DNA of 64,000 bases. Origin: Escherichia coli. Lineage in GTDB: Bacteria > Pseudomonadota > Gammaproteobacteria > Enterobacterales > Enterobacteriaceae. This document shows positions 8,487-62,866 of this stretch, one piece after another. Under the pieces are notes generated by a model. The model made no database searches, was not told the origin of the DNA, and was given only the letters and a program-made list of their open reading frames with translations. How positions within the stretch are numbered: the stretch's first letter is position 1; the number at the start of each line of letters is the position of its first letter. The DNA is taken from assembly GCF_003334305.1 (NCBI RefSeq), contig NZ_QOWS01000023.1; one strand, 5' to 3'. The position numbers were made by a program, and so were the translations under genes.

Positions 8487-8516
8487 GTCGGATGCGGCGT
8501 AAACGCCTTATCCGAC
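8487..8516. repeat. REP (repetitive extragenic palindromic) element
   Basis: gtcggatgcggcgtaaacgccttatccgac palindromic unit between convergent rhtB and rhtC. Confidence 0.55.
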
Positions 8517-18430: not shown

Positions 18431-18460
18431 GCCGGATGCGGCGTAAACGCCCTATCCGGC
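18431..18460. repeat. REP element
   Basis: gccggatgcggcgtaaacgccctatccggc between convergent yigE and uvrD. Confidence 0.55.
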
Positions 18461-18537
18461 CTACATGACGTTGCAATTTATTGAATATGAATGATTTTTT
18501 AGGCCAAATAAGGTGCGCAGCACCGCATCCGGCAACG

Positions 18538-36577: not shown

Positions 36578-36608
<31 letters not shown>

Positions 36609-58090: not shown

Positions 58091-58136
58091 TGAGTAAGTG
58101 CCGGATGCGATGCTGACGCATCTTTTCCGGCCTTGA

Positions 58137-60158: not shown

Positions 60159-60374
60159 AGGTGTATTGCTCAATCTTCGAACGGGGGGAGGATTGTAGCA
60201 GAATCGCATTTGAATGTGACCGCGTGTAAGCCGCTAACCGGTTGGCTGCGGATGTTTAAATCAGAGAGAGAAGACCGAAACCGGAGTTCATCGTGAATCC
60301 ATTAGACTTAGAAAATATCGGGTCGTAACGTTGTGTTATTACTTTTTCAGAGTTTACTAAGGAGAGGTGTACTC

Positions 60375-60824
60375 GTGGCGATTAATTTCAGTCCTAAGGT
60401 TGGTGAAATACTGGAATGCAACTTTGGTAACTATCCTGTTAGCCAGAATGGACAGTTCAGCACCACGTATTACGATGGCCGCATTCCTCCTGAAATGATA
60501 AAAAACAGGTTAGTTGTCGTGCTCAACGGAAAAATTAATGGCAACGCATGTATCGTCATTCCATTATCAACCACTCGCGATCATGACAAGTTAAATCGTG
60601 GAATGCATGTTGAAATAGCCAGTAATGTTATCAATGGCCTGCAATTCTTTGATCAGCAGATTCGTTGGGCCAAAGCCGACCTGGTACAACAAGTCAGTCG
60701 AAACCGATTAAATAGAGCAAGGACTTACAGAGGGTATCTTAATCAATGTTTGCCACATGAGTTGGTTGCAGACATACAGAGGGCGGTCATCAAGTCAATC
60801 AATGCCATATCGCTCATAAATTGA
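60375..60824 (+). CDS. yifN: PemK/MazF-like toxin-fold protein (yifN-like), ~149 aa from GTG at 60375; ORF track starts 60333
   Basis: ggagag Shine-Dalgarno then GTG; translation MAINFSPKVGEILECNFG...RLVVVLNGKINGNACIVIPLSTT... resembles the PemK/MazF pattern of a Gly-rich N-terminal strand and a hydrophobic V-I-P-L-[ST] core; I recall yifN at this position in K-12. Confidence 0.55.
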   Translation: MAINFSPKVGEILECNFGNYPVSQNGQFSTTYYDGRIPPEMIKNRLVVVLNGKINGNACIVIPLSTTRDHDKLNRGMHVEIASNVINGLQFFDQQIRWAKADLVQQVSRNRLNRARTYRGYLNQCLPHELVADIQRAVIKSINAISLIN

Positions 60825-60901
60825 CAATAAAATCACCATCCCCGATAATGACTTTGTAGCCCATAGAGGCCCTAAGTTTTCTCCCCTTGAGGGACCTGCG
60901 A

Positions 60902-60924
60902 AGCCCGGATTTTCCGGGCTTTTG
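60902..60924 (+). terminator. rho-independent terminator after the yifN-like ORF
   Basis: agcccgga tttt ccgggct hairpin followed by TTT. Confidence 0.5.
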
Positions 60925-60998
60925 CCATATATGTACCAGCCCCTCCCTGACTGACAATTACGTTAGCATCTGCGGATCATGCTAAAATCGCCGCCTGA

Positions 60999-61304
<306 letters not shown>

Positions 61305-61308
61305 TAGC

Positions 61309-61340
61309 AAGGCCTTCTCCAGGAGAAGGCCTTGAGTGTT
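61309..61340. terminator. stem-loop between convergent ppiC and ilvC
   Basis: aaggccttctcc agg agaaggcctt hairpin followed by gtgtttt. Confidence 0.5.
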
Positions 61341-61390
61341 TTCTCCCTCTCCCTGTGGGAGAGGGTCGGGGTGAGGGCATCAGCGCGCAC

Positions 61391-62866
61391 TTAACCCGCA
61401 ACAGCAATACGTTTCATATCTGTCATATAGCCGCGCAGTTTCTTACCTACCTGCTCAATCGCATGGCTGCGAATCGCTTCGTTCACATCACGCAGTTGCG
61501 CGTTATCTACCGCGCCTTCCGGAATAGCTTTACCCAAGTCGCCCGGTTGCAGCTCTGCCATAAACGGTTTCAGCAACGGCACACAAGCGTAAGAGAACAG
61601 ATAGTTACCGTACTCAGCGGTATCAGAGATAACCACGTTCATTTCGTACAGACGCTTACGGGCGATGGTGTTGGCAATCAGCGGCAGCTCGTGCAGTGAT
61701 TCATAATATGCAGACTCTTCAATGATGCCGGAATCGACCATGGTTTCGAACGCCAGTTCAACGCCCGCTTTCACCATCGCGATCATCAGTACGCCTTTAT
61801 CGAAGTACTCCTGCTCGCCGATTTTGCCTTCATACTGCGGCGCGGTTTCGAAGGCGGTTTTGCCGGTCTCTTCACGCCAGGTCAGCAGTTTCTTATCATC
61901 GTTGGCCCAGTCCGCCATCATACCGGAGGAGAATTCGCCGGAGATGATGTCGTCCATATGTTTCTGGAACAGGGGTGCCATGATCTCTTTCAGCTGTTCA
62001 GACAGCGCGTAAGCACGCAGTTTCGCCGGGTTAGAGAGACGGTCCATCATCAGGGTGATGCCGCCCTGCTTCAGCGCTTCGGTGATGGTTTCCCAACCGA
62101 ACTGAATTAGTTTTTCTGCGTATGCCGGATCGGTGCCCTCTTCCACCAGCTTGTCGAAGCACAGCAGCGAGCCAGCCTGCAACATACCGCACAGGATGGT
62201 TTGCTCACCCATCAGGTCAGATTTCACTTCCGCAACGAAGGACGATTCCAGCACGCCCGCACGGTGACCACCGGTTGCTGCCGCCCATGCTTTAGCGATC
62301 GCCATACCTTCGCCTTTCGGATCGTTTTCCGGGTGAACGGCAATCAGCGTCGGTACGCCGAATCCACGTTTGTACTCTTCACGCACTTCGGTGCCAGGGC
62401 ATTTCGGCGCAACCATGACTACGGTGATATCTTTACGGATCTGCTCGCCCACTTCGACGATGTTGAAACCGTGCGAGTAACCCAGCGCCGCGCCGTCTTT
62501 CATCAGTGGCTGTACGGTGCGCACTACATCAGAGTGCTGCTTGTCCGGCGTCAGGTTAACCACCAGATCCGCCTGCGGGATCAGTTCTTCGTAAGTACCA
62601 ACTTTAAAACCGTTTTCGGTCGCTTTACGCCAGGACGCGCGCTTCTCGGCAATCGCTTCTTTACGCAGAGCGTAGGAGATATCGAGACCAGAATCACGCA
62701 TGTTCAGGCCCTGGTTCAGCCCCTGTGCGCCACAGCCGACGATAACCACTTTTTTACCCTGAAGGTAGCTCGCGCCGTCGGCGAATTCGTCGCGCCCCAT
62801 AAAGCGACATTTGCCCAGCTGTGCCAGCTGCTGGCGCAGGTTCAGTGTATTGAAGTAGTTAGCCAT
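61391..62866 (-). CDS. ilvC: ketol-acid reductoisomerase (491 aa)
   Basis: ORF track 61391-63016; ATG at 62866 gives [49 protein letters not shown]... Confidence 0.97.

Follow-up and report, generated by a model that had tools for sequence, protein, structure and literature searches.

A catalogued copy of the BoxC repeat in the ppiC-ilvC spacer of Escherichia coli

What is the G-rich palindromic sequence that lies between the convergent genes ppiC and ilvC of Escherichia coli, and does it serve either of them? The window analysed here, i.e., the whole stretch of 64,000 nucleotides, ends with rep, a yifN-like ORF, ppiC, ilvC, and ilvY, which is the E. coli gene order. According to the ORF list and the K-12 annotation, the ppiC coding sequence occupies positions 61023-61304 on the + strand and that of ilvC positions 61391-62866 on the - strand (1476 nt, as in K-12), and the 86-bp spacer between them contains two stem-loops, namely a hairpin at 61308-61334 and the element in question. 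The hairpin is common to the two convergent genes, lies outside the element, and has 13-nt arms that are 100% complementary (12 pairs by the terminator scan). The original prediction regarded the element as one of the short intergenic repeats of enterobacterial genomes rather than a simple terminator, and our analysis supports this view, assigning it to the BoxC family (= PIT = TMECO). With a probability of about 0.93, we consider the element to be the published copy TMECO no. 20 and a mostly neutral, structure-prone passenger rather than a dedicated regulatory site. The identity holds because the K-12 copies and the window copy align outside the simple runs of G and C, whereas the notion of a mostly neutral passenger is weakened by its resting on negative evidence.

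The gene neighborhood is itself variable on the ppiC side. The yifN ORF, which is located between rep and ppiC in the window (60333-60824, + strand, 163 codons), is a pseudogene in K-12 and encodes an intact 149-aa toxin of the PemK/MazF family in WW2 and several other genomes. In some E. coli (e.g., Ecol_732 and ESM1.4), yifN is absent and rep adjoins ppiC.

Architecture and identity of the element

The 36-mer that was originally singled out has a single occurrence in the window (61343-61378, + strand), which falls within the span of 61336-61390 assigned to the palindrome, and was not recovered in any of 100 shuffles. As predicted, the element directly follows the ppiC terminator hairpin (61308-61334) and precedes the ilvC stop, ending at 61390, one base short of the stop codon (61391-61393, - strand). 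Alignment to other copies delimits the full BoxC/TMECO unit of type B to 61339-61390 (~52 bp, with the G-rich strand being the + strand), in agreement with the predicted span to within 3 nt. Exactly this interval (query 160-211) is covered by the alignments of a plasmid-labelled copy and of other loci.

Read along the + strand, the unit opens with the T-rich left edge TTTTCT (61339-61344), which corresponds to the type-B left-flank consensus TTTTCt and forms the T-tract after the ppiC hairpin. The C-block CCCTCTCCC (61345-61353), a pyrimidine arm recognized from hairpin pairing and the consensus match, is separated by loop 1, TGT (61354-61356, placed by the hairpin geometry), from the purine arm, G-block 1 GGGAGAGGG (61357-61365), with which it forms 9/9 Watson-Crick pairs. 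Loop 2, TCG (61366-61368), which is of type B in Table 1, no. 20, of PMC4666352, leads to G-block 2 GGGTGAGGG (61369-61377), a putative third strand. The unit closes with the right edge CATCAGCGCGCAC (61378-61390), which abuts the ilvC stop codon and the terminal CGCAC of which is conserved in type-B copies. Thus, the predicted inverted repeat is present and is indeed G-rich, but it is not imperfect, as its arms are complementary at 9/9 positions around a 3-nt loop. The impression of imperfection arises from the third block, which lies beyond a second 3-nt loop and is a direct repeat of the second arm differing by one change, and a series of three blocks (C, G, G) captures the element better than the term palindrome does. 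Two small ORFs overlapping it (61282-61407 on the - strand and 61355-61699 on the + strand) were rejected as spurious, the element being a non-coding repeat common to unrelated spacers.

When compared with known repeat families, the element matched BoxC and did not match REP/BIME. The TMECO consensus, CCCTCNCCC-N3-6-GGGNGAGGG-N3-GGGNGAGGG, is matched without deviation at 61345-61377 (+ strand) and not at all in 100 shuffles. The matching string of the window is identical to CCCTCTCCCTGTGGGAGAGGGTCGGGGTGAGGGC, which is entered as no. 20, type B, in Table 1 of Holder et al. (2015; PMC4666352) and is sited there at MG1655 3,959,491-3,959,458. In the K-12 annotation, these coordinates correspond to the ilvC-ppiC spacer, and the K-12 DNA at 3,959,459-3,959,491 is identical to that of the window. 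The element is therefore the ppiC-ilvC copy of BoxC, already catalogued in K-12. As a discovery it is ordinary, this exact copy having been tabulated in 2015 and the family having been known since 1992. It is useful as an annotation, since the K-12 RefSeq record has nothing annotated at the element.

BoxC is a short interspersed repeat found in E. coli and related enterobacteria. According to PMC4666352, a single motif carries three names, that is, BoxC (Bergler et al. 1992), PIT or potential intrastrand triplex element (Hoyne et al. 2000; Hoyne and Maher 2002), and TMECO. The published length of BoxC is listed as 56 in PMC2267715. With a 57-nt query, BLAST located 30,334 places in 5426 complete E. 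coli genomes; the median genome has 7 of them and the richest 15. The element is therefore a dispersed repeat, and the window copy is not a single-copy sequence. A 1999 study by Bachellier et al. is reportedly a further source on BoxC and the PIT element. All 23 published K-12 copies were recovered at their published coordinates, at 18 intergenic sites (7 between convergent genes, 9 between tandem genes, and 2 between divergent genes), and their conservation reaches beyond the 34-nt core. The 8 type-B copies have in common the left edge TTTTCT and, at the end of the right edge, CGCAC; the corresponding edges of type-A copies are GTC (left) and GAAC (right). The closest K-12 relatives of the window copy are those at hrpB-mrcB (1 mismatch in 52) and xynR-argF, and the TGT loop is common only to these two and the window-type copy among the K-12 copies. 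The species range considered here is that emerging from PMC4666352 and from the plasmid BLAST search; in the phage collection, only three weak partial matches were found.

In NZ_AP023208.1 (pMTY18781-3; L022 2440-2552), an inverted type-A BoxC has as its neighbor a copy with 98% identity to the window unit. The two copies meet at their left edges, unlike the five pairs of K-12, the members of which meet at their right edges. The 70-kb record bears a plasmid label, yet contains the flagellar genes flgA, flgM, and flgN.

Filled and empty alleles of the spacer

A search with a 381-nt query revealed ppiC-ilvC alleles that are 41 nt shorter. With a 120-nt query spanning the junction, the filled allele was found in 2944 of the 5426 complete E. 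coli genomes, so that ~2480 genomes (~46%) are without the element at ppiC-ilvC; the two genes are intact in both situations, and so is the shared hairpin. In the empty allele, as found in O157:H7 and three further strains, the 14-nt spacer ACTCTGAATCGCTA comes between the hairpin and the ilvC stop, and in WW2 the corresponding spacer is ACTCTGAATCGCAC. What the empty allele lacks are the 55 nt GTGTTTTCT...GCGCAC, and with 14 nt standing in place of 55 nt, the difference amounts to a replacement. No target-site duplication was detected at the filled/empty junction in the allele alignment. Escherichia sp. MOD1-EC7003, the one non-coli Escherichia genome included in the comparison (ilvC 92.3% identical to that of the window), carries the empty allele, the identical 14-nt spacer included, which favours a gain of the element within E. 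coli.

All E. coli alleles that were examined contain the hairpin pattern, GGCCTTCTCCNGGAGAAGGCC. When genome contigs were scanned for it, one Escherichia and two unrelated chance matches were obtained; the single Escherichia was not accompanied by any E. coli representative, and E. coli may be absent from the scanned contig collection.

A similar spacer also exists outside of the chromosome. Plasmids from Klebsiella, Citrobacter, and E. coli bear a ppiC-ilvC-ilvY segment that is ~90% identical to that of E. coli and in which the same hairpin recurs, followed, at the 4-nt offset of the window copy, by a T-rich edge and then by a BoxC core; the ilvC stop codon of the segment is located 2 nt after the core, inside the position of the BoxC right flank. 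Simple cut-and-paste insertion was not adopted as the origin of the filled allele, given that there is no target duplication and that part of the empty spacer has been replaced, and a simple one-off event is likewise not established, because replacement without duplication is combined with the presence of BoxC at the same place on a diverged plasmid segment. In many plasmids, the segment belongs to a chromosomal-type block, arabinofuranosidase-ppiC-ilvC-ilvY-dhaKL-fabV, exemplified by NZ_CP026172.1 (plasmid pKPN-bbef, typed IncFIB/IncHI1B; L026 4684-6517; also H151-H160).

Other repeats occupy the ppiC-ilvC spacer in a group of other enterobacterial genomes that share their PpiC protein with the plasmid segment (L027-L036, ~1783-2000). 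Some of these spacers combine a REP-like palindrome with ERIC/IRU-like sequence over ~200 nt, two of them (L031 and L035) contain a REP pair, and several of the genomes have two tandem ppiC genes. The ppiC-ilvC spacer thus seems to collect repeat elements. At 61378-61402 of the window, the BoxC right edge TCAGCGCGCAC agrees with the 3' end of ilvC in the plasmid lineage, TCAGCCCGCGAC, at 10/12 positions, and is less close to the end of E. coli's own ilvC, TTAACCCGCAAC. This likeness could be due to chance, to microhomology at insertion, or to an imported spacer of which it is a trace.

A comparable situation was encountered at a second BoxC locus, adk-hemH. The 155-nt spacer of K-12 (L005 1021-1255) consists of BoxC and a hairpin, and in O157:H7 (L057 242-372) it is replaced by an unrelated spacer of ~51 nt with a hairpin of its own. 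The K-12-type spacer is found in 2917 of the 5426 genomes, almost the same count as that of the filled ppiC-ilvC allele. Spacers that bear BoxC can therefore be seen as behaving like alternative cassettes. The filled and empty alleles at ppiC-ilvC (2944 versus ~2480 genomes) provide a clean natural pair for assessing the effects of BoxC on termination, mRNA stability, and local mutation. The available part of PMC4666352 contains no mention of the two alleles and their counts, of the T-tract after ppiC, or of the plasmid copy at the same site.

Folding of the repeat and its possible effects

Several properties of the element are compatible with unusual structures. When G-block 2 is aligned antiparallel to G-block 1, 9/9 triplets are of the kinds allowed in a purine-motif triplex (7 G.G:C, 1 A.A:T, and 1 T.A:T), and the two G-blocks together, GGGAGAGGGTCGGGGTGAGGG, also fit the canonical G-quadruplex motif G3+N1-7. 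Relative to shuffles, a 101-nt region folded as RNA gave z = -4.1 and -4.9 and the 52-nt unit folded as DNA gave z = -4.6, in both cases with tools that consider Watson-Crick and wobble pairs only, triplexes being outside of their model. In Holder et al. (2015; PMC4666352), a triplex formed by type A and type B oligonucleotides is documented in vitro by CD and NMR, and for the full oligonucleotide NMR favoured the triplex over the quadruplex. Accounts of functional work newer than Holder et al. 2015 were not found in our literature search on BoxC/TMECO.

Upon strand separation, the C-block and G-block 1 would form a 9-bp, G:C-rich hairpin, and on the G-rich strand G-block 2 could fold into its major groove to yield a purine-motif triplex. 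Judging from the geometry of the locus, the C-rich version would be transcribed within the 3' UTR of ilvC, upstream of the shared terminator hairpin; in ilvC transcripts, the C-rich strand with its 9-bp hairpin would accordingly follow the stop codon and precede the shared hairpin. Transcripts of ppiC would be expected to end before the element, with the left edge of the repeat, AGTGTTTTCT, as their T-tract. The net fitness effect of the element is probably small, because the flanking genes are intact either way and published reporter tests of the family revealed neither promoter nor terminator activity, and BoxC copies in general have no proven function.

Two alternatives to the passenger reading concern effects of these structures, and both appear unlikely. 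At the level of DNA, an intrastrand triplex or another non-B structure might bring polymerases to a halt and favour mutation or rearrangement nearby. Holder et al. put forward such an 'instability module' and describe raised variability in the flanking regions of TMECO loci (PMC4666352). The fact that all 9 triplets are allowed in the window copy is in line with this idea, as is the existence of the ppiC-ilvC and adk-hemH spacers as alternative alleles in about half of E. coli. The same source reports duplex signals for the double-stranded form, and DMS footprinting in vivo did not show the triplex (PMC4666352). Furthermore, the filled allele is 97.5-100% identical among the genomes listed and at least 99% identical in 2758 records, which is unlike a local mutator, and the flanking genes compared with those of an O157 strain with the empty allele display 97-99% identity, the usual level for E. 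coli. The variability of the spacers may also be the cause of repeat polymorphism rather than its result.

An effect at the level of RNA appears no more likely than one on DNA. Here, the hairpin in the 3' UTR would guard ilvC mRNA from 3' exonucleases, as REP does, and/or complete a two-way terminator for ppiC. Consistent with this possibility, the element is located 11-167 nt downstream of a stop codon at 16 of the 18 K-12 sites, and an RNA hairpin is predicted for it on both strands. In addition, the T-tract after the ppiC hairpin, i.e., the left edge of the repeat, is found in the filled allele only. In the window, the terminator scan classified the 61308-61334 hairpin as terminator-like on both strands, with the + strand tail AGTGTTTTCT, whereas in the empty allele it reported a terminator on the ilvC strand only and none on the + strand. 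From the sequence, we infer that the left edge makes the shared hairpin terminator-like for ppiC as well and might thereby affect termination. However, neither promoter nor terminator activity was observed by Hoyne and Maher (2002), and RNA polymerase was unaffected (as cited in PMC4666352). The orientation of BoxC relative to the upstream gene is inconsistent among the copies, and ~46% of E. coli are without the element at ppiC-ilvC. Nor was there a match to any Rfam family: a search of 60800-61900 at E <= 10 produced only sub-threshold hits (E >= 1.1, with 13-20 bits against gathering scores of 39-90). The effects on DNA and on RNA are not mutually exclusive, and we regard both as minor possibilities beside a BoxC copy that is mostly a neutral passenger.

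More doubtful still is a scenario in which the repeat has been co-opted. Its left edge would turn a hairpin serving ilvC only into a two-way terminator, one that stops ppiC as well. On a plasmid-borne ppiC-ilvC segment that has diverged by ~10%, a BoxC is found at the identical 4-nt offset from the same hairpin, which would mean that an undescribed recombination-like mechanism, leaving no duplication, directs BoxC to spacers next to terminators or spreads it together with them.

Comparison with other repeats and structures

The remaining alternatives assign the element to another class, and each of them is highly improbable. A REP/BIME unit (repetitive extragenic palindrome) might be suspected, as these are likewise intergenic, palindromic, and multi-copy, and occur between convergent genes. 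However, a search with GCCKGATGCGRCG, which we take to be the pattern of the REP head, yielded five copies, similar to one another, at other places in the window but none at the element. Local alignment of the 52-nt unit with these five copies gave scores of 5-7, which is the level of shuffles, compared with 12-37 for REP against REP, and the REP assignment was accordingly rejected. The heads are located at 8487-8499, 18431-18443, 18521-18533, 36596-36608, and 58100-58112 (5 versus 0.55 expected by chance), with those at 18431 and 18521 being in opposite orientation and ~90 nt apart, in a BIME-like arrangement.

Equally remote is the idea of an intrinsic terminator of ilvC or ppiC, or of a chance palindrome: a G:C-rich 9-bp stem-loop near two stop codons invites the former, but the BoxC stem has no T-run on either strand (the + strand continues with TCGGGGTGAG, the stem being followed by TCGGGG, and the - strand with AGAAAACACT, the stem being followed by AGAAAA) and the terminator scan reports only the neighboring 61308-61334 hairpin, whereas a pattern seen in 0 of 100 shuffles, yet in thousands of genomes, is not a product of chance.

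Among the known systems, REP/BIME elements resemble BoxC, both being short, G+C-rich, palindromic, and multi-copy, and residing mostly in 3' untranslated spacers. Nevertheless, the two share no sequence similarity, and BoxC is composed of three blocks, whereas REP is a simple palindrome. A dedicated transposase and a binding protein have been described for REP elements; we know of neither for BoxC. MITEs (e.g., ERIC/IRU) resemble BoxC in being small, non-coding, dispersed, and polymorphic for presence and absence. The element does not belong to that class, because it has no terminal inverted repeats, with the type-B ends TTTTCT and CGCAC being neither inverted repeats nor complementary, and no target-site duplication, with 9-14 nt of the empty allele having been replaced. 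With H-DNA and G-quadruplex tracts, BoxC has in common a purine-rich strand capable of folding into a triplex, but in BoxC the neighboring C-block competes for the G-blocks. Finally, with respect to BoxC/PIT/TMECO itself, the window copy displays every hallmark of the family that we considered, namely the consensus, an entry among the catalogued members, dispersed copies, conserved edges, and triplex-compatible blocks, and in none of the tested features does it differ from the catalogued family.
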